Assembly (NCBI GenBank): GCA_964650345.1
Contig: CAZYSI010000002.1
Location: forward strand, 1 to 44,059
Reading direction: 5' to 3'
DNA length: 44,059 nt
Origin: an uncultured Candidatus Saccharibacteria bacterium
GTDB taxonomy: Bacteria; Patescibacteriota; Doudnabacteria; UBA920
The notes beneath the pieces were generated by a model, which saw only the letters and a program-made list of their open reading frames with translations, had not been told where the DNA came from and did no database searches. Shown one piece after another: positions 13,791 through 31,769 of the stretch. Both the position numbers and the translations under genes were made by a program. Positions within the stretch are counted from its first letter, which is position 1, and every line of letters starts with the position of its first letter.

Positions 13791-16346
13791 GTGCCTTTTG
13801 AATTAAGCACCATTGCCATTGCCGGAATAGTCCTAGCCGTTCTAATCGCGGTGTTTTTCGCATTTCTAGCATATTACTTGCATCGCCATTGGTATTACAC
13901 CAAAGTTATCCTGCCGCGCACTAAGAACTGGGTGTTTATGGAAATACAAATGCCGAAAGAGAGCTCTGAAGATAAAAATTCGCAGCTGCAAAATAACGAA
14001 GAGGGCAAGAAGAATCTCATTGCTGTAGCTGAGCAATTATTTACCTCACTTTCGGAAATTAGTCATGAGAATTGGTGGTTTCAGCCGAAAGAGTATATTA
14101 GTTTTGAAATTGCTTGCACTGACAAGAAGATTTCATTTTACATAAACTGTCCTCAGCATTTACAGCAACTCATTGAAAAACAATTGCAGGCTCAGTATCC
14201 GCATTCATTTGTAGAAATTGTTCGGGCATATAATCCTTTCCAAAAAGGTGGACAGGTGGTTGCAACGGAATTACAAACCACGCGTCCATATGTGTTCCCG
14301 ATTCGTACCTATAAAACCATGGAGACTGATCCTTTGAACTCTTTGACTAACGCAATGTCGAAATTAGGCGAAGGGGAAGGGGCTGCTATTCAATTCATAC
14401 TCTCACCTGCAGGGCATCATTGGCAACACAAACCACGCCATATGGCTTTGGAAATTCAGCAGGGAAAGAATCCGGATAAAGTAGTTAAAGGGGTTGGCGC
14501 GCGCGTGGCTTCGGAAGCGTTTTCAACTTTGAAAGACAGCACTCTGGGGAAAAATAATCCTTCCGCAGCAGGACAGCATCATCAAGATTTGTCGGGAATG
14601 TACAGCCCGATTAATCTGACTCCAATGCAGCAGGAGATGGTGAAGCGGTTTGAAGAGAAAGCCAGTCGACCAGGATTTAAAACTAATATCCGGATTGTTT
14701 GTTCATCTGTTAATCCTGGTGCAGCGGCAGTGAATTTGAATAATATTGTTTCATCTTTTTTGCAATACAACATGCCTCCATTTAATGGCTTTCGAATTAA
14801 AAAGCGAGCTCAGGCCTCGATCGTTAAAGATTTTATTTTCCGCATTTACCGCCGCTATGGCAGCAAAGCCATTTTAAATACGGAAGAACTAGCTAGTTTA
14901 TGGCATTTACCAACGCCATTTTTAGAAACTCCGAATATTAAGTGGCTGCAGTCTAAAAAGGCGCCGCCGCCAGTGAATTTGTCAAAAGAGGGAATTTTAA
15001 TTGGCCGAAATATTTACCGCGGGGTGGAAACGCAAATCTTTGCAGATCGAGATGATCGCCGCCGCCACATGTACATTCTGGGACGAACTGGTGTGGGTAA
15101 AACCGAGATCATGAAGTATATGTCTGTGCAGGATATTAAGAACGGCGAAGGATTATGCATTATCGACCCGCATGGTGATTTCATTGAGGATGTGTTACCA
15201 CACATTCCAAAGGAGCGTGCAGAAGATGTAATTTTGTTTGAGCCGTTCGATACTGAGCGTCCAATGGGTTTGAACATGCTCGAAGTTCGCCAAGAAGGGG
15301 AGAAAGATTTTGCGGTACAGGAAATGATCTCGATTTTTTACAAACTGGTGACTGACCCTGCAATGCTAGGGCCAATGTTTGAACACAACATGCGTAACGC
15401 CATGCTGACTTTAATGGCCGACGAAACTCATCCTGGAACCTTAGTAGAAATTCCACGTATTTTTACAGACGTTGAGTTCCAAAAATACAAGATTAGTAAA
15501 TTACAAGATCCAGTGGTGCGAGCGTTTTGGGAAAAAGAAATGGCTAAGACCAGTGACTTTCACAAGTCGGAAATGCTGGGTTACTTGGTTTCAAAAGTTG
15601 GGCGGTTCGTAGAAAATTCCATGATGCGAAATATTGTTGGGCAGCCCAAGAGCGCCTTTAATTTCCGCGATGTCATGGACAATGGCAAAATTTTGTTGGT
15701 GAATTTAGCCAAAGGTAAAGTTGGTGAAATGAATGCCAAGCTGATCGGCTTAATTTTAGTCAGTAAGATTCAAATGGCTGCTATGTCACGCGCGGATATT
15801 CCCGAAGAAGATCGTAAAGACTTTTATTTGTACGTGGATGAATTTCAAAACTTTATTACCGACGCGTTTTCAAGTATTTTGTCTGAGGCGCGAAAGTACC
15901 GCTTGAACTTAATTATTGGCCATCAGTTCTTAGGGCAATTATCGCAAGGAGCGGGTGTTCAAGGCGCAGGTAGCAATGATCTACGTGATGCTGTATTTGG
16001 TAATGCCGGCAGCATGGTCACATTCAGGATTGGCGTGGAAGATGCCGAAATTATGGCCAAGGAGTACGCTCCAGTGTTTAATGACTTCGATTTACTAAAT
16101 GTCGACCGGTTTAATGCTTTTGTAAAGTTAATGATTAACGGCACTGCCAGTAAACCATTTAACATGGCAACATATCCGTTGGAAAAAGCCACCGAAGAAC
16201 AGCGCGCCACTGCCGCAGCCATTCGTCAGTTATCTCGTTTGAAATTTGGTCGTCCACGCGCTGAAGTTGAAGCTGAAATTCTCGAAGCTAGTCGTGTGGC
16301 TGACATGATGGCAGCCGGTGAGGCTGGAATAGAAAAAACCGTTTAG
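13791..16346 (+). CDS. Membrane-anchored FtsK/HerA/VirD4(TraD)-superfamily P-loop ATPase, type IV coupling-protein-like (851 aa)
   Basis: GTG start. N-terminal TM helix IAIAGIVLAVLIAVFFAFLAYYL. Walker A GRTGVGKT (nt 15081-15104), then CIIDPHGDF. Walker B YLYVDEFQNF (Asp-Glu at 15837-15842). C-terminal GNAGSMVTFR pattern as in coupling proteins. Confidence 0.75.
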   Translation: MPFELSTIAIAGIVLAVLIAVFFAFLAYYLHRHWYYTKVILPRTKNWVFMEIQMPKESSEDKNSQLQNNEEGKKNLIAVAEQLFTSLSEISHENWWFQPKEYISFEIACTDKKISFYINCPQHLQQLIEKQLQAQYPHSFVEIVRAYNPFQKGGQVVATELQTTRPYVFPIRTYKTMETDPLNSLTNAMSKLGEGEGAAIQFILSPAGHHWQHKPRHMALEIQQGKNPDKVVKGVGARVASEAFSTLKDSTLGKNNPSAAGQHHQDLSGMYSPINLTPMQQEMVKRFEEKASRPGFKTNIRIVCSSVNPGAAAVNLNNIVSSFLQYNMPPFNGFRIKKRAQASIVKDFIFRIYRRYGSKAILNTEELASLWHLPTPFLETPNIKWLQSKKAPPPVNLSKEGILIGRNIYRGVETQIFADRDDRRRHMYILGRTGVGKTEIMKYMSVQDIKNGEGLCIIDPHGDFIEDVLPHIPKERAEDVILFEPFDTERPMGLNMLEVRQEGEKDFAVQEMISIFYKLVTDPAMLGPMFEHNMRNAMLTLMADETHPGTLVEIPRIFTDVEFQKYKISKLQDPVVRAFWEKEMAKTSDFHKSEMLGYLVSKVGRFVENSMMRNIVGQPKSAFNFRDVMDNGKILLVNLAKGKVGEMNAKLIGLILVSKIQMAAMSRADIPEEDRKDFYLYVDEFQNFITDAFSSILSEARKYRLNLIIGHQFLGQLSQGAGVQGAGSNDLRDAVFGNAGSMVTFRIGVEDAEIMAKEYAPVFNDFDLLNVDRFNAFVKLMINGTASKPFNMATYPLEKATEEQRATAAAIRQLSRLKFGRPRAEVEAEILEASRVADMMAAGEAGIEKTV

Positions 16347-16380: not shown

Positions 16381-17763
16381 ATGGGATTTTCTGAAAAACT
16401 TCAATACGCACATAGCCAAGCGCAGGATGCAAAGGATCATATTCAAGGCAGTATCGACGAGATAAAAGATAAGATTACAGAGAAGGTTGATCCTTTGAAA
16501 GAAAAGGCTACTGCAGTCGCCGATGCTTATCGAGGGGTTAAAACTGGCGCTAAGGAAATAGTTGGTAGAGTTAAAGATACTGCGATGTTGGCGCGTGACA
16601 AAGCAGCAGCTACGCGTGTTGATATTGAAGAGGCTAAAAATGACCTTCAATTTGCTGAGTTTTTGTCAAAATCCGGAAAAGATTTAGATTGGGATGCCGA
16701 ACAGTGGCAAGTTAGAGAAGCGTATGTTCAGTACGAACGAACCAAACATGTAACCGATAAAATTGGTAGTCTATTCACAGAGAAGCTGCAGAATGTAGTG
16801 GGCGATAGTCCAGAAGTTCGGTCGTTAATTTCCGACCATCTCATTGAGTTGGCTAATACTAACCCCTCAGAGTTGATAAAATTGGAACGTTACGCTAATG
16901 CCGTGTCTGAAAGTCAAAAGCAAATACTAGAGAAGCAAGCTGAGATTGATAAGTTAGCCGGTGATTTTGCGGGTGATTCAAGCAGAGAAGCAATGCAAGA
17001 TAAGTTAACTACTTTAAAAAAATCAAAGAGCATAAAGGGTCGCATTCTTCAGAAAATCGATAAAGTAGGTTTGGCTAATGAATATATGCTTGCCTCAGAA
17101 AGTGCGAGGAAAAATTACAATCTTGGATCAAGGCGTGAAATTACTGCTGAAATAAAACAGCTGAGAAAAGGCATTAAAGGGATTAAGAAATTAGAAGATG
17201 CTCAAACTGAGATTCGTAACAAGTTTGCCTTTGAGCGTGCCCAATTATTTTTAGATAGTGATTCTGCAAAGGATATCCATAGTCGACTAGAAGCCATTAT
17301 AAATCAGAAGTTCGCAGAATTATCTGCGACGCCTAGTCTAGGCAACACTAAACGACTTCATAAAGCTCACCGGGCATTGCGTACTGAGTTTGAAAATGAA
17401 GGAAGTATTGTACGTACTGGTATTGGTAAAAGAATTTTGAATGATTCCTTAAATAGTCCTACCGAAATAGTAGGTCGGAGTACAAGAGATTTGCTTGCTG
17501 ATGAAAATTATTTGGAGGGCGAGATCGAGGAGCGGGTTGTAAGAAGGTTAAAGACTTTAGTTGAAAATAGTTCAAATGACCAGTTATCTGATGAAGTAGA
17601 TAAGTATTTTAAAAAACAGCAGTTCGCAGGTGCATCCCCAAAGAAGTCAGCAGAGAAAGTTTGGGGGGCGTTGAATCAGGTACGTGATAGATTTTCTGTC
17701 ACAGACCCTAATCGAGTACGCGTTGATTGGTTGCTGAGGAAATTAGAATTTAGAACAGCATAG
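16381..17763 (+). CDS. Hypothetical coiled-coil protein (460 aa)
   Basis: Long Lys/Glu/Ala-rich heptad-like helical sequence. Tightly linked to the ATPase upstream and to the next ORF (2-nt gap). Confidence 0.65.
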   Translation: MGFSEKLQYAHSQAQDAKDHIQGSIDEIKDKITEKVDPLKEKATAVADAYRGVKTGAKEIVGRVKDTAMLARDKAAATRVDIEEAKNDLQFAEFLSKSGKDLDWDAEQWQVREAYVQYERTKHVTDKIGSLFTEKLQNVVGDSPEVRSLISDHLIELANTNPSELIKLERYANAVSESQKQILEKQAEIDKLAGDFAGDSSREAMQDKLTTLKKSKSIKGRILQKIDKVGLANEYMLASESARKNYNLGSRREITAEIKQLRKGIKGIKKLEDAQTEIRNKFAFERAQLFLDSDSAKDIHSRLEAIINQKFAELSATPSLGNTKRLHKAHRALRTEFENEGSIVRTGIGKRILNDSLNSPTEIVGRSTRDLLADENYLEGEIEERVVRRLKTLVENSSNDQLSDEVDKYFKKQQFAGASPKKSAEKVWGALNQVRDRFSVTDPNRVRVDWLLRKLEFRTA

Positions 17764-17764
17764 T

Positions 17765-18061
17765 ATGAATAAATTTGATATTGATAATTTTATAGAGTTG
17801 GTAGAAGCGAATAAGTTGGATGATGCTAGTCAGAAACTTGGTAATTATTTTGATAAACTTACACCAGCGGAAAAAGGAAAGGTCTATGTAGATATTGCAG
17901 GTATTTATATGCGCATGATTGCTGAAAATAACATGCGTTTGGTAGAATTTTTAGATGCTCAATTGGCTCGGTTGAGAGAAATAGATGAAATTGAGTCTAA
18001 CGCTAGTAATCAGATTAAAGATAGATTTGATTTAGCAGATCTTAGAAAAAAGCTGCAATAG
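17765..18061 (+). CDS. Hypothetical small helical protein (98 aa)
   Basis: Starts 2 nt after the previous stop. No recognised motif. Confidence 0.55.
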   Translation: MNKFDIDNFIELVEANKLDDASQKLGNYFDKLTPAEKGKVYVDIAGIYMRMIAENNMRLVEFLDAQLARLREIDEIESNASNQIKDRFDLADLRKKLQ

Positions 18062-18084
18062 TAAGAGTTTGATAGTTTACTTTT

Positions 18085-18112
18085 AAAATCCCCTTTAAAT
18101 AAAAGGGATTTT
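18085..18112 (+). terminator. Weak terminator-like hairpin
   Basis: aaaatccc (18085-18092) / gggatttt (18105-18112), 12-nt loop. The stem is AT-rich, so this is a low-confidence call. Confidence 0.4.
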
Positions 18113-18136
18113 AAATATTCTTAAAAATACTAAACC

Positions 18137-18165
18137 TTGACAAAACGTCTTAAATTTGCTATAAT
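18137..18165 (+). promoter_or_regulatory. Consensus sigma70 promoter of the lectin cassette
   Basis: TTGACA (18137-18142), 17 nt, TATAAT (18160-18165), with TGC immediately upstream of the -10. Confidence 0.75.
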
Positions 18166-18299
18166 TTGCTAAATTTGAACAATAGTAGCTGCTGACTTAT
18201 TTTTCCGGAAATGTTGGTTAAAAGCCTGTATTTCCGGCAAAGTAATCCTTTGCCTGTACATTCCAAATTAAATACTTTCTTACTAAGGAGCATACTGTA

Positions 18300-19610
18300 A
18301 TGGCAACATCACGAACCGACGTTGAAGCTGTTGTTGAGTTCTTTGATCCCAACAACAAAACCAAGTCAGATAAGAGCGGCAGAAATTACCCGCAGTATGG
18401 GTTTCTGTTCGTAATTGATGACGGGACTAGGATACCGATTCAAGACGAGGGTCTTGACGCGGCTATTAGTCCACAGCTCCGTAGAGATAATATCTTTACG
18501 GTGGATATTGTTGCTGATCCTACTAATCCCACAAGGGACAAAGTAAAAGCAACCAACTTTCGGTTTGTTAGAACCGAAGCCGGCGCTGCAGACAGCGCTA
18601 AGGCCAAATTCAAACCTGCCAAATCTGGTGCTCCTACACCTTCCTCAACAAAGGCCGACAAGGCCGATCCCAAACAAAATACTGAAGAGCTTTGGCGGCT
18701 CGAGGTAATGGGTGAACCAGTCGGAGGCGATAATAGCGGCGAATGGACAATATCCGTGGAGTTGGATAAAAACAACTACCCGGTACCAGACGCCAAGATC
18801 AAATTCCGTGCTGGATCGACAAGTTTCGTTGGGACGACCGGTCCCGAAGGCTGCATCGAACAGACCATAACTGTTTCAGATAATACGTATGGGCGGGTCG
18901 TTTACGACTCATCCCTGAGTATATCTGGAATACCGATTGCTGGACCAGATAAAGCTGTTGCCCCTAAGCGTAAGCTTACGGGTTGGCACTGGTTTAACAA
19001 TTTTTTGTATGGTTTTTGGACTGCTGTGCTTGTGCTTTCGATCATTCTGTGGGTACGGGCGGGTTATGTGGAGCTCACAACGCCTTACTCGCAGACCAAA
19101 TCGGTCAGCACAACACAGCAGGACAACGGCCGACCTAAGTTTTCTTGGGACAAGACTCAGCAACCTGCTCCAGAAACGGAGCAGGCAGCAGTAAGTTGGG
19201 GTGGTTACATTTGGAGCTGGACTCCAATGGGATCATTCCTCATTTTGCTACTCTGGTTCTTCCTTTGGATTATTTTGTTTCCGATTTGTTTCGGAGCGGA
19301 GATCTGGGAAGCTTTGCTGAATCAGTACCAAAAAAGCAAAGGCGCTATCGAGGCTTGGCGTCATACGCGTGAACCATTCCAGTATACCGTCGAGGTTATC
19401 CGGAATGGCGGCAAAATCGCTCAGAAACCGGTGTATATGTACAACGGCGAAAAAGTGAATAAGCCCGAGACGCGCTCGGAAGCGATGAGTTCGCTGAAGA
19501 ATATGAAATTCGGCGATATCAAAGAATTTATCAAGTTCGATTTGTTGTCGGATCTCGGCGTAATGCTATTCGACCGCTTCGTGCTTGGCAGACTATTTGG
19601 AGGAAGGTAA
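18300..19610 (+). CDS. Hypothetical two-TM membrane protein with N-terminal soluble domains (436 aa)
   Basis: AAGGAG lies 7-8 nt before the ATG. Soluble N-terminal ~230 aa with a Lys/Ala/Pro linker. TM helices FLYGFWTAVLVLSIILWV and FLILLLWFFLWIILFPICF. Confidence 0.7.
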   Translation: MATSRTDVEAVVEFFDPNNKTKSDKSGRNYPQYGFLFVIDDGTRIPIQDEGLDAAISPQLRRDNIFTVDIVADPTNPTRDKVKATNFRFVRTEAGAADSAKAKFKPAKSGAPTPSSTKADKADPKQNTEELWRLEVMGEPVGGDNSGEWTISVELDKNNYPVPDAKIKFRAGSTSFVGTTGPEGCIEQTITVSDNTYGRVVYDSSLSISGIPIAGPDKAVAPKRKLTGWHWFNNFLYGFWTAVLVLSIILWVRAGYVELTTPYSQTKSVSTTQQDNGRPKFSWDKTQQPAPETEQAAVSWGGYIWSWTPMGSFLILLLWFFLWIILFPICFGAEIWEALLNQYQKSKGAIEAWRHTREPFQYTVEVIRNGGKIAQKPVYMYNGEKVNKPETRSEAMSSLKNMKFGDIKEFIKFDLLSDLGVMLFDRFVLGRLFGGR

Positions 19611-19611
19611 C

Positions 19612-20661
19612 ATGGATACGTGGAAAAAAGTTGGAATCGCAGTGGTACTTCTGCTGCTGGTCGTTGTTGGTATTTTGATCTTCAAGGCCTTGGTCATGAA
19701 GTATTTCGATCTGACGCTGTCGTTGGTCTTTGTTTTGTCGGCATTCGTGCTGGCAGCGATCGCGCTAGCGTTCATTCACTTTTTTGCTCCTGAGAGCTCT
19801 CGCAGCTTTCTGACGAGTGGAGTTGTCGTGATGCTGGTTCTGTTCTGCGGGTGGTCAATCTATGCAGGCACTAGTCCAGTAGCGGCTAAAACCACGAAAA
19901 AAGGGATCGCGGCTCACTTTCTTAACTTCGCCAAAAATTTGTTGCCGGACAATTCAGCTAATGATGAGGTTACTCATCAGGCTGATATGGACTGCGACGA
20001 AGCAACTGCGGAGTTTCGCTATAATGTCGAGCAGAAATTGCTGGACAATTATAAGCAGGATGGCGATGTTGATAAGTACCTCCGTGCCCGAGCAGAATTG
20101 CAGGAGAAGTTGATGAAGAACACTGCTTTATGCAGTTCGGCATCACGTTCTTCGGTTACTCCTTCCTCGACGCCCGCGCCGGCGAGTACTCCCGCCTCAA
20201 CAACTTCTTCAACTAGCATGGTAGCAACTACGGGAACAACCAAAGTTTTCGTGGATGCTACTCGGTACAATGGAGTCGGGTCGGTTCAATTGATTTCTGG
20301 ACGAAAGTTCGAAATTAAAGGGACAGGCACGGCGGTGTGGAAAAATATTCCCGTAGGAAATCCGACAAAGTATGAATCTTGCGGTCCGGAAGGCACTTCG
20401 CCAACTGCATCGGTCAAGATGACCCGTGAGGAGTACTTCTCCAATATCGGGGACTACTTATGTCCTACGGCTCTCAAGGGTGCGCTCATTGCCAAAATTG
20501 GCAACGGGGCGTGGTTCCCGGTCGGAAAAAACTTTCAGGGGGTAGCCCAGAATGATGGGGTGCTGACTTTAGCGGTCAACGATCTTGATCCGCAAAAGCA
20601 GCCCACGTCGAACTGGGCAGACAATGGTGGTGGGTTCTCGGTGGCGGTCATCGTACACTGA
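19612..20661 (+). CDS. Membrane-anchored protein with C-terminal PA-IL (LecA)-like lectin domain
   Basis: I prefer the ATG at 19612 (GGAGGAAGG taa c ATG; SD at 19599-19603) over the 19585 ATG in the ORF track. Three N-terminal TM helices, then a Ser/Thr/Pro linker (SSVTPSSTPAPASTPASTTSSTS). The C-terminus reads CGPEG...GALIAKIGNG...GVLTLAVND...DNGGGFSVAVIV, resembling P. aeruginosa LecA as I recall it. Confidence 0.7.
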   Translation: MDTWKKVGIAVVLLLLVVVGILIFKALVMKYFDLTLSLVFVLSAFVLAAIALAFIHFFAPESSRSFLTSGVVVMLVLFCGWSIYAGTSPVAAKTTKKGIAAHFLNFAKNLLPDNSANDEVTHQADMDCDEATAEFRYNVEQKLLDNYKQDGDVDKYLRARAELQEKLMKNTALCSSASRSSVTPSSTPAPASTPASTTSSTSMVATTGTTKVFVDATRYNGVGSVQLISGRKFEIKGTGTAVWKNIPVGNPTKYESCGPEGTSPTASVKMTREEYFSNIGDYLCPTALKGALIAKIGNGAWFPVGKNFQGVAQNDGVLTLAVNDLDPQKQPTSNWADNGGGFSVAVIVH

Positions 20662-20675
20662 AGCCTATTTCACTG

Positions 20676-20716
20676 AAAGGGTTAGCGGATATAATTCGCT
20701 GACCCTTTTTATTTTG
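20676..20716 (+). terminator. Rho-independent terminator closing the lectin cassette
   Basis: aaagggttagcg-gatataatt-cgctgacccttt (one G-U pair) followed by ttattttg. Confidence 0.8.
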
Positions 20717-20741
20717 TCTAAGCACTAATTGCTTATATAAT
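20714..20741 (+). promoter_or_regulatory. Promoter candidate for a leaderless mRNA
   Basis: TTGTCT (20714-20719), 16 nt, TATAAT (20736-20741). The ATG at 20749 is only 7 nt downstream. Confidence 0.5.
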
Positions 20742-20748
20742 ATAGATT

Positions 20749-21687
20749 ATGTTGTTATCTTTTTTGAAGAAAAATTTTTATCTACATGAACTGATAATTA
20801 TCCCAGCTTTTATTGGGAGTGTAGGATTGAGTTGGTATTTTAGTCAAAATTACAATTGGTTGCCTCCATTTGCAGAATGGGTAATGCTAATTGCTTTGAT
20901 GTTTTTTATTGGTTTTGTATGTGTAAAAATTGCAACTGTTGGAATTAAGTTATTTTTTAAGTCTGAGATTGCTCAAAACAAATTTAATTATATAAAAACT
21001 TTCCGATTTATTAGAATTTTTTTTGCTATTTTTGTGTTGTTAATAATATATGAGAATTTACAACTCATTATTCCATCAATCGCTCCAACGCTTCAGGACC
21101 CTGCCTTGTTGTATTATGATGAACTGTTATTTGGTTTTTATCCGACTGATCCGTGGATTATGAACCTTGCCAATGTGTATCTCACAGAAATAATGAACGC
21201 AGTATACCTAACTTTCTATTTCTATATCCCTATTATTGCTCTGTTACTGTATGTTCAAAATTCGATTTCCGAAGCTTTGCGTTTTACGTTAGTAATGGTC
21301 ATTGCATTTCTAATCGCATTTGGACTTTATATATTAGTTCCCGGTATAGGACCCTTGTACTATCTTAAAGGTCAATTTCCTGTTGAATTAGACGGAACAT
21401 TGGTGAATTTAGTGCAGGGTATATTGCAGACCAGTGGAATTCCTCGCAATGTTTTTCCCAGCTTACATGTCGCTGGTAGTGCTATTCCGCTATACTTCTT
21501 TTACAAGAACTCTAAACCGTTGTTTATAGTTTGCTTGCCGGTCATTATTTTGTTGTGGCTATCGACCGTTTATTTGAGGTTGCATTACATTATTGATGTC
21601 TTTGCGGGGTGGTTTTTAGCAATTGTTTGCATAGCGCTTGGAACCTATTTATTTACGAAATGGAATGAAAAAACATTGGTTGATTAG
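20749..21687 (+). CDS. PAP2_C-type (sphingomyelin/IPC-synthase-like) lipid phosphotransferase family membrane protein
   Basis: Polytopic membrane protein with FPSLHVAGS and RLHYIIDVFAGW. These match the SGH / HYxxDVxxG signature of the PAP2 superfamily. Confidence 0.7.
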   Translation: MLLSFLKKNFYLHELIIIPAFIGSVGLSWYFSQNYNWLPPFAEWVMLIALMFFIGFVCVKIATVGIKLFFKSEIAQNKFNYIKTFRFIRIFFAIFVLLIIYENLQLIIPSIAPTLQDPALLYYDELLFGFYPTDPWIMNLANVYLTEIMNAVYLTFYFYIPIIALLLYVQNSISEALRFTLVMVIAFLIAFGLYILVPGIGPLYYLKGQFPVELDGTLVNLVQGILQTSGIPRNVFPSLHVAGSAIPLYFFYKNSKPLFIVCLPVIILLWLSTVYLRLHYIIDVFAGWFLAIVCIALGTYLFTKWNEKTLVD

Positions 21688-23221: not shown

Positions 23222-26200
23222 ATGTTGTTTCGCATAGGCGAGAGAAGTGGTTCTGATTTTGAAACAAAGCTAGATCCGGAGCGAAAACCGAGTGAAAATA
23301 TTAATGAGCTTGAGCAAACTAAAGCTGCTGAGGTTGATTTTGAAATAGGCAAAGAAGCAAAAGGTAAAGAAGGTATTAATGAACGTTTAGAAGAAGAATT
23401 GGGTGTCGTTGCAGAAAAAATTATTTCAAATAACGATGACTTAGAAAATTTAATAGAGAGTAATTTTTCAGACCGGTCACCAGAGGAAAAACAAAAAATT
23501 CTAGAACAACTGCAATCCGCAGCTGGCAAAGAAGAATTTAAGGGTCATGTTAAGGAGTTTTTGACTAAGTCCTTACCAAAAGATTTTACTGTAGGCGCTT
23601 TGGCTGGTTTCGCAGCTCCGCTAATAGCCAAGATAGCAGTTAAAAATTCAGCACGGGCTTTACTTGCTAGTAAAACATTTGGAGTGAGTGTGGCTGCTGG
23701 CGCGATCGCTAACGCTGTTGTTGAACCATTGAGACATTGGATTCGCAATAAAGAAAAAATTGTTGCAAAAGATATTGAATGGCAATTAGCAGCCGCTCAG
23801 TCGTCGGAGCAGCAAGCCGCTATTATCGCTCAGACCCAGAAAAGTTTGGAGGCAGGTCGGTTTCGTAAAGAGGACGAAGCTGGTGTTCGAGCACTATTGC
23901 AAGAACAGCTTGTAAAGGTACATTTAGAAACAAATAAAGAAGGTTTGGAAGGCAAGGATAAGGTTTTACAAATACTGGAAATTTCAAAATCTACCCGACG
24001 TGCTTTGTTTACGAAAGAGGGCAGGGCAGTGCGAAAGCTAATTAATAGCGTTGAGCTGCTTACTGAAAAAAATAAGGTTGGTTATAAGGAGCTAGCTTCA
24101 GCTTCACTTAAAGGCGCTCTTACTGGCGCTGTGGGGGGCGCTGTGGGGGGCGCACTTCATTATTTCCTTGTCGATGCCGGGTACGGCCAAAAAGCCGTCG
24201 ATGTTATCGGGGAGAAATTAAAGGCTGGTTGGTCTGTTTTGCGAAATATGAAAGGCAGTGGTGGCCCTGCGTTGGCATTTATTAACCCAACCTTAGCAAC
24301 TACTCTTTACGGGGAAGTAAGTAACTACGCTCCAGATGTTCCGGAGAAAGAAATTCCCGACGCTGTTAAGCAGGTCATTGCTAACAAAGCTGAGCAGTCT
24401 TTTACAACAGCACCACAAGGATTGTCGGAGATAAAGGACAAACTAGCAGAACAGGCGTTTTATTCTGATTTAGAGCAGGGTAATGGGGGAACGCATTTGG
24501 CTCGAAAAGCATTACATGATTACAGGGTTAATCTAATTAAATCCGGCGATCCTGATGCTGCAAATCTCTCTACTGAACAATTAATCTTCGCAGAAAATTG
24601 GTTTATTAAGCATAAGTTAGATAAATATGTTGAAGAAGGTGCGGATCATGCCTTTAAGCTAGGGGAGGAAGTAAAACCCTTTGATGGCGCAGATTTGAGA
24701 GAGGCAATTGAGGAAGCAAAAAAACTGAATGAGGAACAGCTAAAGAATTTGCACAAATATGTAGACAAGCTTTCTGAAAAAACCATTCACGAAATGCACG
24801 ATTTACAGAATTTTGAAAATGCAGCGAATGACTATACTAAAAACATTCAATCGCCGCAGCCAGATCAAAGTAATGTCGCACCGGGCACTAACCCTGCAAT
24901 AAGTCCAACACCTGAAAACTATGACAATTATCATCCAGACCCGTTAACCGATGAGGAGCGTAAAGCTATAAATGATTCGCAAGATCGTTTTCAAGAAGAT
25001 CAAGCTACTGGTGGTTCTGAGATAGATAAGCAGATTGAACAGTATTATGAGGACAACAAAGACACTGGTCTGAATGAATCAGAAAAAAATATTGAAAGCA
25101 TTAATTCTAAATTAATTGCAATTGCTAAACTAAATCTCATGGGAGGCATCTTGCTTGGTGGGGCTGCAGCAGGGTTTTATATGTTCAAGAAGTGGCAAAA
25201 AGAACGCCCTACTCCTGAGCAAAGTAGAGAGGCGATTGAACAGCTGCTACGCCAAAGAGAACTAGAGGTTGAGCTGGGAGAAGGCGTGACCGATAAAGAC
25301 ATACATAAGCAGTACAATAAATTAATTCGGGCCATAGAACAAGATTACGCTTATGGTGGTTTAGCAAATCTTGCCGGTAAAAAAATTGTATTAGAAAAAG
25401 CGCATAGTGCTAAGGAGCCCTGGGTAGATCATACTGACCCCGAGGTAATTCATTTACCTGTTTCTGTAAAACTTGATAAGTTAGAAAGGTTTATTAATCA
25501 GCTAGATGATGATGCAATCGATCAAGCTAAAGAGTTTTCAGAACGAAAATTATATGAAGCGGGTGATATTATGTTAGATTTGGAGGATGAGTTTCAAATA
25601 AGAATTAGGTTCATTAACAGAGGTCCGAATGGAGTAAGTTCACAACAATTAATTGACAACCTCGATCGATTCAGAAACGCTTTGCGTGACTTACCAGCAG
25701 AGGATTTGCACGGGACGAACTTCGTTCTAACTTATGCCTTAAATGAGCTCGATAAGTCAAGCGGAGATATCTACATAGATGTGGTAAGGCAAACCGATGA
25801 AGAACTATCAAAAGAACTAAGGCAGTTACTTGGGTTAGCCGAAAATATTGAATCTGGAAGTGGTGCTCCAATTTTGGCTGAGCCAGTTTTTGAAGACGAA
25901 CCAGAAGATGTTGATGAGCCTGACTCGTCTGGTATTGTAGAACCAGAAATTAATCCGGTCGAACAAGCTAGACAGGAGATTCAATCTGAATTCAATGAAA
26001 TAGAACGAAAGCATGGTATGAATATAGCTTTGGCTAATGATAAAACCGCAGAATTATTAATGCGCGACCGCAATTTAATGTTTAATTTGCAAGACGGCAT
26101 TGAAGATGCGAGTCGATTCTATCCAGGGATGTTTTATCCTTTCGAAGGTTTTAAAATAGTTCTTGATGATAAATGGGCTTTAGAAAAAGGGGTGCGCCAT

Positions 26201-27895
26201 ATTAACATAAAACAAGGTACACCAAAGCAAATTGCAGATTTTTTAGTTGACCCAGTGAGAGCATTGCGACGTAATAATGAGCCTGCAGCAAGTGGGGTTG
26301 ATAGCATTGAAGTGCGCAATATCGAAGGTAATGAATCAAATCGATTCTTCGAAGAGAATGAAGTTCAGATTCATGGCTCAGCCTATGAATTTAGTCCAGG
26401 TTCTTTTGCTAAACTTGAGGTTAAAGATTTAGTTGACGCAGGCTTAGAACCAAAGCATACAGTTGTTGTAGGAAGTACTGAGTTGAGAGTTTCTCAGCCT
26501 TATAATTTAGACAACGGTCGTCTGGCAGCGATGGTCTATGTGAAGCAAGGCGATGTTTATGTTCCTCGTTCCTATTACAAAAGTAATTCAGCTGTATCTT
26601 GGCGTTATTTGCCTACATATAGTAGAGAGTATGACCCTGAAACAGATCGTTACAATCGTCATTACGATAAAGGCTATGACGAGGATAGTTTAGATGCTAC
26701 TTGGGAAGTGCAAATGGCTTTAACTAAGATCGCAGCAGAACCGAATAATATTATCAATACTCCAAAGGATCCAGAATTCTATATGTTTGGGACATGTTGG
26801 GAGAAAGACAAAGATAATACTTATCAATTTTCGGTTGACGAGTTAGGTGAAACCTATAATGGTCAGTTTAAAGTACCTGAAAGTGATCGGCAGAAGCACG
26901 AAAATGTAGGCGGGTTTTTGGAATTTACTGGTGTGAATAAACTCGAGCCAGAAAAGGTTGGTTTTGCTAATCACGCTTTTAATCCGAACTTTGCTGAAGG
27001 TCCAATAGCGGAATGGCCTGACTATAGCCACATTTATGGTGCGATCACTAATAGGGTTTTTCAGAGTAAAAATAAGCAGCTTACTTATGTGATTCATGAA
27101 AGCGCAGAGGGAAAGGTGTGGATGAACATTCAGACTAATACTGAATTAACTCCAGTTGGTGTGAGGAAGAAGTGGTTTGATGGCGGAGACTTAACCTCAC
27201 CTGCGTATGAATACAAATATCCTAAGATTTCGAATAGTGGTGAATCTTATGTCTACGATCAAACTGGAGGTTATGGTGATGATTCCGATAGAAGAGGTAG
27301 TTATGTTGACATGTTTAAAAACTACAATAGCAAAATTCCTATTATTAAAGAGTATCGGGAATGGAGAAATAATCCACCCGCATCGCCACAGCCAGAGTTA
27401 GTTATTGAACCAGAGCCGGTTAAGCCTAAGCAAGCAGCTTCGTCTCCTCGAGATAGAACCCTGAAGCCAACTCCAGAAAGCCTTCGTAGCTACCCAATAG
27501 GTATTGATTCTGCGCCAGCAACTGAAGCCTGGGATCTCCTTCACTCGGAATCTAAAGAGAATCCATTTCGATCAAATATTGATGATGTTGTTCCACAGCT
27601 TAGCCAACTGGAAAATTGGGTTAATGAGCAAAGAGACTTCAGTGTAATTTACCCTGAATCTCCAATTGTAAAAGCATTTGAAATGCTGAACACGCTATTC
27701 GATTTTTATTCTGATGACGACCGAGCTCGTTCAACTGTTTCCTGGTTACGAGATACTATTAGACAGTTAAACCGCGTAAGTATGAGGCGAGCAGAAGAGC
27801 AAGCCAATGCTAATTTGGGTCGCGATAATTCAGAAGACCCAATTCCTAAAGTAAAGACCAATCGCTTAGAACGAAAACATGGTAAGAAGGAATAG
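23222..27895 (+). CDS. Giant multi-domain membrane protein (1557 aa), function unknown
   Basis: Uninterrupted 4.67-kb ORF. Hydrophobic Gly/Ala-rich segments: FTVGALAGFAAPLIAKIAV, GALTGAVGGAVGGALHYFLV, LMGGILLGGAAAGFYMF. Acidic coiled regions and an aromatic-rich C-terminal region of ~350 aa. No family motif recognised. Confidence 0.8.
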   Translation: MLFRIGERSGSDFETKLDPERKPSENINELEQTKAAEVDFEIGKEAKGKEGINERLEEELGVVAEKIISNNDDLENLIESNFSDRSPEEKQKILEQLQSAAGKEEFKGHVKEFLTKSLPKDFTVGALAGFAAPLIAKIAVKNSARALLASKTFGVSVAAGAIANAVVEPLRHWIRNKEKIVAKDIEWQLAAAQSSEQQAAIIAQTQKSLEAGRFRKEDEAGVRALLQEQLVKVHLETNKEGLEGKDKVLQILEISKSTRRALFTKEGRAVRKLINSVELLTEKNKVGYKELASASLKGALTGAVGGAVGGALHYFLVDAGYGQKAVDVIGEKLKAGWSVLRNMKGSGGPALAFINPTLATTLYGEVSNYAPDVPEKEIPDAVKQVIANKAEQSFTTAPQGLSEIKDKLAEQAFYSDLEQGNGGTHLARKALHDYRVNLIKSGDPDAANLSTEQLIFAENWFIKHKLDKYVEEGADHAFKLGEEVKPFDGADLREAIEEAKKLNEEQLKNLHKYVDKLSEKTIHEMHDLQNFENAANDYTKNIQSPQPDQSNVAPGTNPAISPTPENYDNYHPDPLTDEERKAINDSQDRFQEDQATGGSEIDKQIEQYYEDNKDTGLNESEKNIESINSKLIAIAKLNLMGGILLGGAAAGFYMFKKWQKERPTPEQSREAIEQLLRQRELEVELGEGVTDKDIHKQYNKLIRAIEQDYAYGGLANLAGKKIVLEKAHSAKEPWVDHTDPEVIHLPVSVKLDKLERFINQLDDDAIDQAKEFSERKLYEAGDIMLDLEDEFQIRIRFINRGPNGVSSQQLIDNLDRFRNALRDLPAEDLHGTNFVLTYALNELDKSSGDIYIDVVRQTDEELSKELRQLLGLAENIESGSGAPILAEPVFEDEPEDVDEPDSSGIVEPEINPVEQARQEIQSEFNEIERKHGMNIALANDKTAELLMRDRNLMFNLQDGIEDASRFYPGMFYPFEGFKIVLDDKWALEKGVRHINIKQGTPKQIADFLVDPVRALRRNNEPAASGVDSIEVRNIEGNESNRFFEENEVQIHGSAYEFSPGSFAKLEVKDLVDAGLEPKHTVVVGSTELRVSQPYNLDNGRLAAMVYVKQGDVYVPRSYYKSNSAVSWRYLPTYSREYDPETDRYNRHYDKGYDEDSLDATWEVQMALTKIAAEPNNIINTPKDPEFYMFGTCWEKDKDNTYQFSVDELGETYNGQFKVPESDRQKHENVGGFLEFTGVNKLEPEKVGFANHAFNPNFAEGPIAEWPDYSHIYGAITNRVFQSKNKQLTYVIHESAEGKVWMNIQTNTELTPVGVRKKWFDGGDLTSPAYEYKYPKISNSGESYVYDQTGGYGDDSDRRGSYVDMFKNYNSKIPIIKEYREWRNNPPASPQPELVIEPEPVKPKQAASSPRDRTLKPTPESLRSYPIGIDSAPATEAWDLLHSESKENPFRSNIDDVVPQLSQLENWVNEQRDFSVIYPESPIVKAFEMLNTLFDFYSDDDRARSTVSWLRDTIRQLNRVSMRRAEEQANANLGRDNSEDPIPKVKTNRLERKHGKKE

Positions 27896-28361: not shown

Positions 28362-29396
28362 TCAGGTTATGGGTCCGCTCGGGGTCGGTGAGGTATTCGA
28401 ATTGCTCGAATTACTGTTCGTCGATCCGGACGGAGCCGCGGTATTGGAATTGCTGTTGCTGTTCTGCTGCTGCGAACTGGGATCAGGAGTCGGGCTAGGC
28501 GACGGCGTTGCCGCAGGAGCCTGGTTCGAACCTGGGTTTGTGTTCGCTGCAGGAGCAGTGGAATTGTCGGTGCCCTTGATCGTGACGGTAACGGCGACTT
28601 CGCACTTCGAGCCGCAATCTTTTGCAGCGTCGATCGTGGTGAACTTGATCGTAGCAGTGACATCCTGCGCATTCTTTTTCCCATTAAGCTTGGCAGTCAT
28701 GCGATTGGCAAGATCTGGGAAGGAGAGAAGCGCGTTCTGGGAATCGCTGGTGGCCTTGAGACGGGCAAGTATTGCATTACCGTCCTTGTCCTTGGCCTTA
28801 ATGACGATATTAGTTTCCACTGCAGTGTCGAGTTCGATGTTTGTGCTATCGGCCTCGAGACTGGCAACTTCCACCTTCTTCACTGTTACCTTGATGGCCT
28901 TGCGGAGCGCCGGGAATTCCTCGGACCCGATATAGAACGATCGAGTGCCGGGAAAGATCGAGTTAATGGTCAGCTTGTTGGTCTGCGCGTCGATCGAAGC
29001 GGTCGCAGTCTGCGACTTGCTGTAATCGGCGAGAAGCTTAGCGGTGAGCGAACTGTTATCGGCCTTTTTCAGGACGGACAGCTCTATCTCCAGCTGCTGA
29101 CCAGGGGTGGTTTCATATTCGTACTTGTCATCAGCGATGACAAACTTCGCCTCGGCCGTGTCGACTACCTCAGGCTTAGGAGCCGGGGGATTGTGTCGAC
29201 GAGCTGCTGCGGCTGTCTTCTTGACGCCGTTGCCATTGGCCTTTTTGGCGTGCTTCTTCTTGGCCTTCTTGGCCGAGTAGTTGTAAGCGGTCCGCGACGG
29301 GTTTATCGTCTGAGCCGACACCGAAAGGTGGCTTGCACACACGATGATACCGACGAAAAGTAACGAAATTATCGAAAGAATAGACAATCTTTTCAT
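28362..29396 (-). CDS. Secreted beta-rich (Ig-like repeat) protein with basic N-region and Ser/Asn/Pro-rich C-terminal tail
   Basis: Signal peptide MKRLSILSIISLLFVGIIVCASHLSVSAQ, then a Lys-rich stretch, two ~90-aa beta-strand-pattern modules, and the tail QQQNSNSNSNTAAPSGSTNSNSSNSNTSPTPSG. AGAGGAA lies before the ATG. G+C is markedly higher here: hand counts of two 60-nt lines gave 55% and 63%. Confidence 0.75.
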   Translation of the reverse strand: MKRLSILSIISLLFVGIIVCASHLSVSAQTINPSRTAYNYSAKKAKKKHAKKANGNGVKKTAAAARRHNPPAPKPEVVDTAEAKFVIADDKYEYETTPGQQLEIELSVLKKADNSSLTAKLLADYSKSQTATASIDAQTNKLTINSIFPGTRSFYIGSEEFPALRKAIKVTVKKVEVASLEADSTNIELDTAVETNIVIKAKDKDGNAILARLKATSDSQNALLSFPDLANRMTAKLNGKKNAQDVTATIKFTTIDAAKDCGSKCEVAVTVTIKGTDNSTAPAANTNPGSNQAPAATPSPSPTPDPSSQQQNSNSNSNTAAPSGSTNSNSSNSNTSPTPSGPIT

Positions 29397-29693: not shown

Positions 29694-31769
29694 ATGAATA
29701 GTAACATCTTTTTAGCGCTTTTAGGTGTCTTTAACGTTTTAAGCCTTCTTATGCGACGGCGAGCGAAAAGCAAGCTGTCGCAGCGGGAGATCGACGCGTT
29801 GCTGACCAAATTTCCGCACCGGTCGGTAGACCAGTTGTTGTCGGCCGTTTATTCTTCACCAGTCGCTTTGGTTCGGTCACTGATCGACCATGCCGTTAAA
29901 TACAACGACGATTACACTGATGGTGATCGTGAGGCGGCAGTAGAGGTATTGTCCAAATTGTTCGTTAGTGTCGACTGGCAACCAAGAGTTTCTGGTTTGA
30001 CCGTAAAACGAATTTGGTCAGCAACCAAACAGCTAACCGAGTTGTCGGGAGCTGGCATTATCCTTGCTTTTGTCGTTTCGCTCATCGCTAATATTCTCGG
30101 GTATCTGTATTTTGAGAATTGGTGGATGTCCACCGTGGCGGTGACAGTTGGATACTTTGCTTTGGCTTCGTTTGTAGTTAGCGGTGTTCGCTACCTTTGG
30201 TCGCAGATGCCGTTGACTTCGCGTCTTGTAAAGGCGGGTCTAGTAATCGGCTTCCTTCTGTTTAGTTGGATGCCAATGATCATTTCTTATTTCTACCAAC
30301 CGGCAAGCGCGGTGGTTAATAAGGAACCTGGTATTATTGAGCAGGGAGCGATCGAGAAGCAGCTGGCGAAGATCTATGATCGTCCGCCAGTTCCTACTCG
30401 AGGAGTCCCAGCTTGGACTGCGATGGATATTAAGGTTGGCGCTAAGCGTCGATCTGAACTCAGCGCAGAACAGAAGACCTTGCGTGAATTATTGTTGGTA
30501 GACCAACTAACCTTTTCTTCTCTTAACACGACAGAAAAGGTAACTGGTTTCCAGCGTATGAAGAACTACACCACGCTCGTTTCGGCCTCCGTCGCCAATC
30601 TCTTAGTGCGCGATCCACAGGCTGGTAAGGACTTTGCTGAGCAAACAGGTTTACAACCCGAAAACCTGGCTGACTACTTCCTGGCAATTTTAGGGAAGGA
30701 GTCATCTTGGTCAAACGATTGTGAATCGGGGACCGGTCCGGTATGTCCCGCAGGTATTTCTATTGCCTTGGGGGAAGACGAGGGTTTGGTGAAGGGAAAT
30801 CAGGATCTTCGAAAGGTTCCGGAACATGCTATACCGATGATGGTTGAGTATGCTTATGGTAATTACCAAAAGCTTAATCGTCGTTGGGATCTGGCTGCTC
30901 TGGGTTATCATACTGGGCGTAGTCGCGCCTTAGGTTTGGTAAAGATTGCCCAAGAAGAGAATTTGCAATGGAAGACCTACATGGATATCTACTTTGCAGA
31001 TCCTGATAAATATCCACAAACCTGGGCTAAGGTCCAGGAAATCCATTCCAAGGACTTCGGTGATACCTACTGGCCTGGCATCATTCGCTATATGGAGCTT
31101 ATTTCTGTGTTTCGCACAGATGAAGAAGCTTTCCAAGAAATTGCGAAAGCGCAGCTCAGGAGGGTTGATGGTCGAAACATTGCCCCTAAGTACAAGTTCC
31201 ATACATTCTTTGACGAGAGCCTGTTGAATTTCGAGGGCATCGGTATGTTGAAGGACTTGAACGACTTGAAAGCTGCGGCTGCTAAAGGTTTGCTTGTAAC
31301 TGCACCGAACCATAACTCGATTAATTACCGCACAGCGGATGATCGAGGGATTGGTGCGAACGACAAGGCAAACGGTCTCGAGTACAAACGGTTAAGGCCT
31401 TTGGGTATTGGCGGTTTGTGGGCTGTGGGAACCTTGGTTGGTCGGCTTGATTCGCAGCAACGTCTGGACCTAACTTCCATGATTCGCACGGATGAGTACC
31501 AGAAAAAAGCGAATACTCGTGAGGATGTGGCTGTCCCAACTCATTTGTCGGGGTTGGTATTCGACATCTCGATGAAGGATATGAAGGATGACGATCCTGA
31601 ATACATCCGCATTGCATTCGCTCTCAATGAACTTGAGAATTACGGATGTGTAAGCTGGATGCCGGAAGGGAAAGCGTATCGAGCTTTCCATGTCGTCATT
31701 AATCCTTATCAGAAACAGTGCGTGGAGATGTTTATGAACAACTACCATGTTAGTGGTGCGGTCGGCTAA
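29694..31769 (+). CDS. Membrane-anchored putative cell-wall hydrolase: lytic-transglycosylase-like plus M15 (VanY-like) peptidase-like motifs
   Basis: GGAGG lies 11 nt before the ATG. The N-terminal ~200 aa contain several TM helices. LAILGKESSW (Glu codon 30699-30701) and AALGYHTG resemble SLT motifs I and III. SMIRTDEYQ, PTHLSGLVFD (31542-31565) and AYRAFHVV resemble the SxxR...Q / HxxGxxxD / xxH pattern of M15 peptidases. Confidence 0.6.
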   Translation: MNSNIFLALLGVFNVLSLLMRRRAKSKLSQREIDALLTKFPHRSVDQLLSAVYSSPVALVRSLIDHAVKYNDDYTDGDREAAVEVLSKLFVSVDWQPRVSGLTVKRIWSATKQLTELSGAGIILAFVVSLIANILGYLYFENWWMSTVAVTVGYFALASFVVSGVRYLWSQMPLTSRLVKAGLVIGFLLFSWMPMIISYFYQPASAVVNKEPGIIEQGAIEKQLAKIYDRPPVPTRGVPAWTAMDIKVGAKRRSELSAEQKTLRELLLVDQLTFSSLNTTEKVTGFQRMKNYTTLVSASVANLLVRDPQAGKDFAEQTGLQPENLADYFLAILGKESSWSNDCESGTGPVCPAGISIALGEDEGLVKGNQDLRKVPEHAIPMMVEYAYGNYQKLNRRWDLAALGYHTGRSRALGLVKIAQEENLQWKTYMDIYFADPDKYPQTWAKVQEIHSKDFGDTYWPGIIRYMELISVFRTDEEAFQEIAKAQLRRVDGRNIAPKYKFHTFFDESLLNFEGIGMLKDLNDLKAAAAKGLLVTAPNHNSINYRTADDRGIGANDKANGLEYKRLRPLGIGGLWAVGTLVGRLDSQQRLDLTSMIRTDEYQKKANTREDVAVPTHLSGLVFDISMKDMKDDDPEYIRIAFALNELENYGCVSWMPEGKAYRAFHVVINPYQKQCVEMFMNNYHVSGAVG

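Follow-up and report, generated by a model that had tools for sequence, protein, structure and literature searches.

A two-gene cassette was analysed in a 44,059-nt stretch of DNA (the window; contig CAZYSI010000002.1 of assembly GCA_964650345.1) from an uncultured Candidatus Saccharibacteria bacterium. The cassette contains the open reading frames ORF1 (18300-19610, 436 amino acids (aa)) and ORF2 (19612-20661, 349 aa). It is probably (at a probability of roughly 0.7) the form taken in this species by a resident, rapidly evolving operon, which has a constant position within a hypervariable island found across the genus and encodes a surface glycan-recognition module. The initial annotation of this DNA had suggested a horizontally acquired expression unit, possibly from a host-like bacterium. 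The distinct composition and regulation of the cassette and the accessory nature of its cargo were borne out, but the expression unit is conserved in place in relatives. The genome belongs to the Patescibacteria and comprises 807 kb in 63 contigs with 41.2% G+C. It was compared with relatives named Candidatus Doudnabacteria or uncultured Candidatus Saccharibacteria, the loci of which are designated by L-numbers (L001, L002 and so on). L111 is the assembly of a sister strain and G018 is a single-contig congeneric genome. All features lie on the forward strand unless marked (-).

The cassette is located in a variable region between conserved genes. A backbone derived by clustering the open reading frames of 84 syntenic loci is composed of a ribosomal protein (r-protein) operon, SecY, a VirD4-like/DUF8128 ATPase (in 82 of the loci), a gap, a gene for a 201-aa protein, GtrA and DnaX. 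The backbone genes from SecY onward are each present in approximately 48-82 loci, and the upstream r-protein genes in fewer. The ATPase gene was detected in all genomes of the genus (26/26) with 69-88% identity. Relatives outside the genus nearly all have a gap of 0.1-2 kb between this gene and the 201-aa gene. In most genus members, a variable island of 4-16 kb (15.6 kb in the window) is located there. One site between core genes accordingly carries content that differs from genome to genome, as in replacement-type islands. All island genes, including the low-G+C genes encoding the 460-aa, 98-aa, PAP2 and 515-aa proteins, show 27-58% identity where the ATPase and SecY show 82-91%. The predicted products of the island include membrane anchors, a lectin-like head, PAP2, an SLT hydrolase and giant membrane proteins.

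The expression signals of the cassette begin with a sigma-70 consensus promoter of the form TTGACA-17-(TG)cTATAAT (18137-18165), in which TTGACA occupies 18137-18142 and TATAAT occupies 18160-18165. The perfect promoter named in the initial annotation was confirmed (12/12) and is the sole 12/12 match across 13-32 kb. Seven perfect TTGACA-N17-TATAAT sites are present in the 807-kb genome. Judged from the sequence, the promoter type is native, because all of the TTGACA-N17-TAnAAT sites found genome-wide (16/16) are intergenic. Promoters at the cassette head also match the consensus at 12/12 positions in L001, L002, L030, L036, L037, L044 and L045, and at 10-11/12 positions in L029, L072, L085, L041 and L050, with the shared form TTGACAaaa...TGcTATAAT. 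Upstream of the promoter, a terminator-like hairpin (18082-18115) with 16-nt arms that are 94% complementary closes the preceding pair of genes for the 460-aa and 98-aa proteins. Its equivalent is kept in L001, L002 and L003.

The promoter is followed by a 5' leader of approximately 130 nt (18166-18299). A long stem (18197-18212/18230-18245) competes with a short hairpin, GGCAAAG-TAATC-CTTTGCC (18236-18242/18248-18254), as alternative structures, and the short hairpin is followed by a box, TGTACATT (18255-18262). The leaders of relatives keep the same order of hairpin, box (GYACATTAAAA) and ribosome-binding site (RBS). In three lineages, the GGCAAAG/CTTTGCC arms are replaced by the compensatory pair GGGAAG/CTTCCC, and the hairpin loop in relatives is frequently of the GNRA type. 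Under a strict pattern, the hairpin and box together occur only at cassette heads; this pattern was not found elsewhere in the genome itself or in 800 kb of G018. An Rfam scan of 17900-20900 returned two sub-threshold chance matches only, and none for the leader. More than 10 relatives carry the promoter, leader and RBS together at this slot. The cargo behind them differs, and a BLASTP comparison of ORF1 with the first cassette genes of L010, L022, L002 and L009 detected no significant similarity. On this comparison of loci, the promoter, the leader hairpin, the box and the ribosome-binding sites are read as resident at the locus, ahead of unrelated-looking cargo.

Both genes of the cassette are preceded by Shine-Dalgarno sequences that can be read directly: AAGGAG (18285-18290) lies 9 nt before the ATG of ORF1 at 18300, and GGAGG (19599-19603) lies 8 nt before the ATG of ORF2 at 19612. 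The stop codon of ORF1 (TAA, 19608-19610) is separated from the start of ORF2 by a junction of 1 nt, which is repeated in L001. The cassette ends in an intrinsic terminator (20675-20719) with a 16-bp stem, a 3-nt loop and a T-run. Its RNA fold has an energy of -22.4 kcal/mol (z = -4.9), and none of 200 shuffled sequences folded equally well. The ribosome-binding sites, the coupled stop and start and the terminator had all been described in the initial annotation and were confirmed, as was the lack of Shine-Dalgarno sequences in the neighbouring genes. Promoter, Shine-Dalgarno and terminator elements are correctly spaced, and the anti-Shine-Dalgarno sequence is present in congeneric 16S rRNA: that of two congeneric genomes ends in GGATCACCTCCTTTCT and keeps the CCUCC tail. 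A 16S rRNA gene was not detected in the assembly itself by regular expression or with RF00177. The GGAGG of ORF2 is encoded within the conserved C-terminal Gly-Gly codons of ORF1 (19596-19610), and a C-terminus of the form ...FGG[KR]-stop is common to all three close homologues. The Gly-Gly pair may be under a double constraint, at the RNA and at the protein level.

The coding sequence of the cassette has a G+C content of 49.1%, which is reached by only 0.18% of 2.4-kb windows of the genome (mean 41.3%, standard deviation 2.0). The higher G+C content relative to the neighbours that had been estimated by hand was thus upheld on whole genes (32% for the 98-aa gene and 34% for PAP2), but the r-protein genes, for which approximately 47% had been given, reach only approximately 45%. 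The G+C content at third codon positions (GC3) is 0.50 in ORF1 and 0.55 in ORF2, corresponding to the 95th and 98th percentiles. The tetranucleotide distance falls at the 98th percentile when raw and at the 87th percentile (z 0.9) after normalisation for G+C; beyond G+C, the oligonucleotide signature of the cassette is no outlier.

These values, together with the lack of ORF1 and ORF2 in nearly all congeneric genomes and the self-contained appearance of the unit, would suit a scenario in which promoter, genes and terminator were recently acquired together by horizontal transfer from a bacterium of another lineage, such as a host-like, RBS-using organism of higher G+C content. This explanation is very improbable and is largely refuted. 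The signals of the unit are present at the same slot in relatives, and the promoter type is of the native kind. All ORF1 and ORF2 homologues with a readable context are located in this slot in Patescibacteria, which speaks against a host-like donor. By the refutation criterion of the initial annotation itself (orthologues at the same locus in relatives), the idea of a recent insertion therefore fails. No mobility genes, tRNA or flanking direct repeats were found around the cassette, and tblastn searches of ORF2 against plasmids and of ORF1 against phages gave no matches. A foreign origin of the composition is not supported either. A comparable rise in G+C content from low-G+C flanks to the cassette is seen in L001, L002 and L003 and follows the G+C content of these relatives.

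The dependence of composition on the resident genome was quantified for the island genes of relatives. In island genes with a ribosome-binding site, GC3 lies above that of the backbone in 18 of 19 loci (Wilcoxon p = 6e-6) and follows the relation GC3 = 1.06 x backbone + 0.08 (Spearman rho 0.64); the trend persists without two leverage loci. Island genes without a ribosome-binding site track the backbone with a slope of 0.99 and an intercept of -0.01. The offset in GC3 moves with each genome and is therefore unlike what is expected of un-ameliorated foreign DNA. The raised G+C content and the strong signals of the cassette do not appear to be foreign marks, and such an origin is not supported by them.

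Three other sources of the high G+C content were considered and rejected. Contamination or chimerism of the metagenome-assembled genome (MAG) does not account for it, as the cassette is reproduced independently at 99.95% and the association between ribosome-binding site and GC3 holds in a single-contig genome. GC-biased gene conversion alone does not either, as island genes that lack a ribosome-binding site have diverged to the same extent and show no G+C enrichment. Codon adaptation to high expression was also rejected: translational selection is a poor fit for high GC3 because the genes for EF-Tu and the r-proteins have a GC3 of only 0.28-0.40.

The cassette shares its signals and composition with a minor class of genes in the genome. 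Most genes, including the neighbours of the cassette, have no ribosome-binding site (87% genome-wide). A strong ribosome-binding site at -20 to -4 was found in 69% of genes with GC3 >= 0.48 vs 4.9% of the rest. Chance motifs in G+C-rich sequence were ruled out as a source, as the motif occurs in 0-3% of control windows. Approximately 40-65 genes make up the class (41 if strict criteria are applied). They are mostly accessory, are dispersed singly over the genome and mostly have no Pfam family. Examples in the window are located at 1258-1998, 18300-20661, 28362-29396(-) and 29694-31769. A promoter score of at least 11 was obtained for 46% of the class vs 9% of the other genes, and a homologue in a congeneric complete genome was found for 10% vs 60%. 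Within the non-conserved genes, those preceded by a ribosome-binding site have a GC3 of 0.498, compared with 0.362 in those that lack one. The association between ribosome-binding site and GC3 is repeated, more weakly, in G018. Given this genome-wide coupling of ribosome-binding site, promoter, GC3 and accessory status, the cassette can be counted among the genes of a minority expression regime. A signature of leaderless transcripts, TAnAAT ending exactly 6 nt before the start codon, was found at 39 genes, compared with a background level of 3-4 per position (in the window at 16381, 20749 and 33526), and many ordinary operon-leading genes look leaderless. A literature search on Shine-Dalgarno usage in Patescibacteria found nothing pertinent.

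Within this class, the genes C8:20187-20756(-), C7:17071-17895 and C9:19937-20545(-) encode small proteins with a signal peptide, the C-termini of which read ...YSF, ...LSF and ...YKF, respectively. These proteins of a Patescibacteria MAG have no Pfam match and resemble diderm outer-membrane beta-barrels; their genes are RBS-led and have high GC3. The gene C6:22468-23484(-) encodes a reverse transcriptase (RVT_1, E 2e-17) and is likewise RBS-led with high GC3.

The properties of this class raise the question of whether it was captured long ago as a whole, together with the ancestor of the cassette, from a separate flexible gene pool. Such a pool would have its own composition and signals and would consist of elements circulating among Patescibacteria or other bacteria, with repeated exchange preventing full amelioration. 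The low conservation of the class, the difference in GC3 between non-conserved genes with and without a ribosome-binding site, and the scattered, single and mostly Pfam-less occurrence of its members, often on the opposite strand and behind strong promoters of their own, are in line with this explanation. The beta-barrel-like proteins, the reverse transcriptase and a short recombination tract within ORF2 (see below) also point in this direction. It is nevertheless unlikely: the GC3 of the cargo tracks that of the resident genome with a slope of approximately 1, the leader is specific to the locus, and the RBS-less neighbours in the island are equally divergent and not G+C-enriched. Neither a donor nor a vehicle was identified by plasmid, phage, PHROGs and PADLOC searches.

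It is conceivable, on a tentative view, that the genus runs two regimes, a leaderless or RBS-less core and an accessory set with fast turnover, and that the slot acts as an 'expression socket' in which cargo is swapped without an integrase. The accessory set might then be recognisable by promoters close to the consensus, by long leaders and by strong ribosome-binding sites, with its GC3 held approximately 8-10 points above that of the resident genome. The promoter and the covarying leader hairpin of such a socket could, still speculatively, stay fixed while diverse partner-recognition cargo is exchanged behind them.

The reading of the cassette as a glycan-recognition module is based on ORF2. 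This protein is predicted to contain three N-terminal membrane helices, a helical stalk, a Ser/Thr/Pro linker and a LecA/PA-IL-fold lectin-like domain at residues ~205-349 (20224-20658). The head domain comprises approximately 145 aa and was modelled with a predicted local distance difference test (pLDDT) score of 84-93 over most of its length. The predicted model has the LecA-type beta-sandwich fold. A Foldseek search matched the head to the LecA chains 4cp9, 1l7l and 2vxj with E 2e-9 to 4e-8 and template modelling scores (TM-scores) of 0.83-0.85. LecA (PA-IL) of Pseudomonas aeruginosa, PllA of Photorhabdus and the N-domain of EclA of Enterobacter superpose on the head with TM-scores of 0.75-0.85 (Foldseek E 2e-9 to 3e-6), whereas identity is approximately 26%. 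LecA is a free, soluble protein of 121 aa, whereas the ORF2 domain is the C-terminal head of a stalked protein anchored by three helices. A phmmer comparison of the head with LecA gave E 0.0028, and a profile of ORF2 homologues against PDB sequences gave a best match of only E 0.21, to EclA. No match to ORF2 was found in PHROGs, PADLOC or NCBIfam. The Ca2+/galactose ligands of LecA are the Tyr36 carbonyl, His50, Gln53, Asp100, Thr104 and Asn107 (PMC12684298). A family-invariant loop of the ORF2 head, ND.DP.K....NW.DN..G, is a candidate ligand site with a spacing unlike that of LecA.

ORF2 is rare and, wherever its context could be read, located in the slot. It was detected in 2 of 60 relatives, and the subfamily of its head domain contains only 10 proteins among 5.8 billion. 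In all seven readable contexts (the window, L111, L002, L003/L029, L115, L116 and L117), the gene is the last of the cassette in the same slot, with PAP2 directly downstream in five of them. In L032, L047 and L037, the last cassette gene has a more divergent PA-IL-like end; that of L037 scores 21.7 bits against PA-IL and is likewise below the cutoff. A PA-IL-like C-terminus on the last cassette gene is present in at least nine lineages. L115 has an enlarged cassette (L115:1382-9431) that contains a gene with a faint PP2C match, a VWA gene, a Ser/Thr kinase gene (702 aa), three small genes and, after these, the lectin gene; a VWA gene is also present in L034. The predicted model suggests that ORF2 is fixed by its three-helix anchor and would carry the lectin-like head outside the cell on the stalk and the Ser/Thr/Pro linker.

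The assembly L111, which was obtained independently from another sample, is 99.95% identical to the window over 21 kb. Of the ten differences over these 21 kb, six are packed into a 31-bp segment (20580-20610) within the lectin-domain loop NDLDPQKQPTSNW. Four of the six substitutions are synonymous, and the other two cause the changes L325V and P331S. The loop is flanked by family-invariant Asn/Asp residues. The cluster has the pattern expected if a short tract had been acquired by recombination with a divergent allele. A second cluster, of three substitutions in 32 bp (14006-14037), is located in the N-terminal part of the VirD4-like gene. The same gene contains a scaffold gap of 100 N in L111 (L111:5313-5412, ~window 14786-15023), and the 440-aa fragment called there is therefore an assembly artefact and not a disruption.

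The product of ORF1 is predicted to contain an OB/cold-shock-like N-domain (oligonucleotide/oligosaccharide-binding, OB; residues ~5-92), an immunoglobulin (Ig)-like beta-sandwich (residues 129-213, pLDDT 81-89), membrane helices at 228-260 and 309-346, and a small C-terminal alpha/beta domain. A fold search against the PDB gave nothing at E <= 1e-3, with weak cold-shock/IF1-like matches, and no match was found in Pfam, NCBIfam, PHROGs or PADLOC. Few relatives of ORF1 exist: 11 were found in a set of 1.84 billion representatives. ORF1 is absent from 94 genomes of the bacterial family, save for two marginal C-terminal matches (E ~1e-3). The sole homologue with a readable context (L001) occupies the same slot behind the same promoter. 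The first genes of several other cassettes show a cold-shock/OB-like start, as seen in a pattern read by eye and in a faint precomputed Pfam hint; a hidden Markov model of the ORF1 N-domain retrieves its own family only. ORF1 is predicted to be a hairpin-anchored membrane protein with cytoplasmic OB-like, Ig-like and C-terminal domains. From the models of both proteins, the ORF1/ORF2 pair is most likely a surface glycan-recognition module serving adhesion or partner recognition.

A different function with the same history of the locus was also weighed. Instead of being a partner or host adhesin, the pair could organise the envelope or bind the cell's own glycans as an accessory of the neighbouring VirD4-like translocation ATPase, or it could act as a sensor. 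The constant position after a core coupling-protein-like ATPase, the predicted cytoplasmic OB-like and Ig-like domains of ORF1, and the PP2C, VWA and Ser/Thr kinase genes in the cassette of L115 (with VWA also in L034) are compatible with such a role, which is regarded as doubtful. The ATPase occurs without any such cassette in nearly all relatives outside the genus, and the cassette is therefore not an obligatory partner of the ATPase. The high variability of the locus and the putative recombination tract in the loop of the lectin domain suit recognition directed outward.

Several points weigh against a resident operon for glycan recognition. With regard to function, the score of the head against Pfam PA-IL (PF07828) is 18.0 bits (E 0.003), under the gathering cutoff of 22.5. 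The Ca/galactose ligands of LecA could not be mapped onto the head at residue level. The function of the pair is read from predicted folds and architecture, and the N-terminal parts of both proteins were modelled at low confidence. The membrane topology of ORF1 and ORF2 was judged by eye from the distribution of charges. With regard to history, the homology between the first genes of different cassettes is a matter of pattern reading and not of significant scores. Accessory status, higher G+C content and ribosome-binding sites would also be expected of a captured foreign gene pool.

The resident operon would be expressed and diversified as follows. Transcription would start at the locus-resident consensus sigma-70 promoter and give an mRNA with a conserved, structured leader of approximately 130 nt. 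Both genes would be translated from canonical Shine-Dalgarno sites with translational coupling, and transcription would end at the strong intrinsic terminator. Diversification may occur via rapid divergence together with short-tract recombination between strains.

Replacement-type flexible islands, such as O-antigen or glycosylation islands, carry different surface-structure genes in each strain at the same site between core genes. The island studied here is similar in its fixed, core-flanked site, its non-homologous or very divergent content, its predicted membrane and putative surface proteins and its lack of an integrase, tRNA or flanking repeats. It differs in that it is located in a 0.8-Mb Patescibacteria genome, in that one sub-slot keeps a promoter and leader ahead of variable cargo, and in that the G+C content of this cargo lies above that of the core and not below it. 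Integrons have a conserved resident promoter with variable cargo, and phage 'morons' are promoter-gene-terminator units inserted between other genes. The cassette shares the resident promoter ahead of variable cargo with the former and the promoter-gene-terminator unit among other genes with the latter. Unlike in integrons, no integrase, attC or attI was found, and unlike morons, the cassette lies outside a prophage and has no PHROGs matches.

Little is known about how other cells are recognised and bound by the ultrasmall Patescibacteria, which depend on partners. A predicted membrane-anchored lectin of the LecA fold in a strongly signalled, hypervariable slot found across a genus is a testable candidate for a recognition module. 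For annotation, it follows from the present comparison that RBS-led cassettes of high G+C content in these genomes should not automatically be taken for DNA of recent foreign origin. That ribosome-binding site, promoter, GC3 and accessory status are coupled hints at an unexplained force that holds the compositional offset.

The 1557-aa giant membrane protein (23222-27895) and the 691-aa SLT-domain protein (29694-31769) fall into no family in the clustering of the 84 loci. The sole match of the giant protein is partial (26%) and is located in L036; other genomes carry different giant genes, encoding 884-1516 aa, at this position. The gene at 28362-29396(-) is the compositional extreme of the window (54% G+C, GC3 0.65). 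It has no Pfam family and no relative in any syntenic locus, and is preceded by a promoter at 29585-29557 (11/12, with TG). In L116, a PemK-type toxin gene (L116:15464-15853(-)) is located between gtrA and dnaX.

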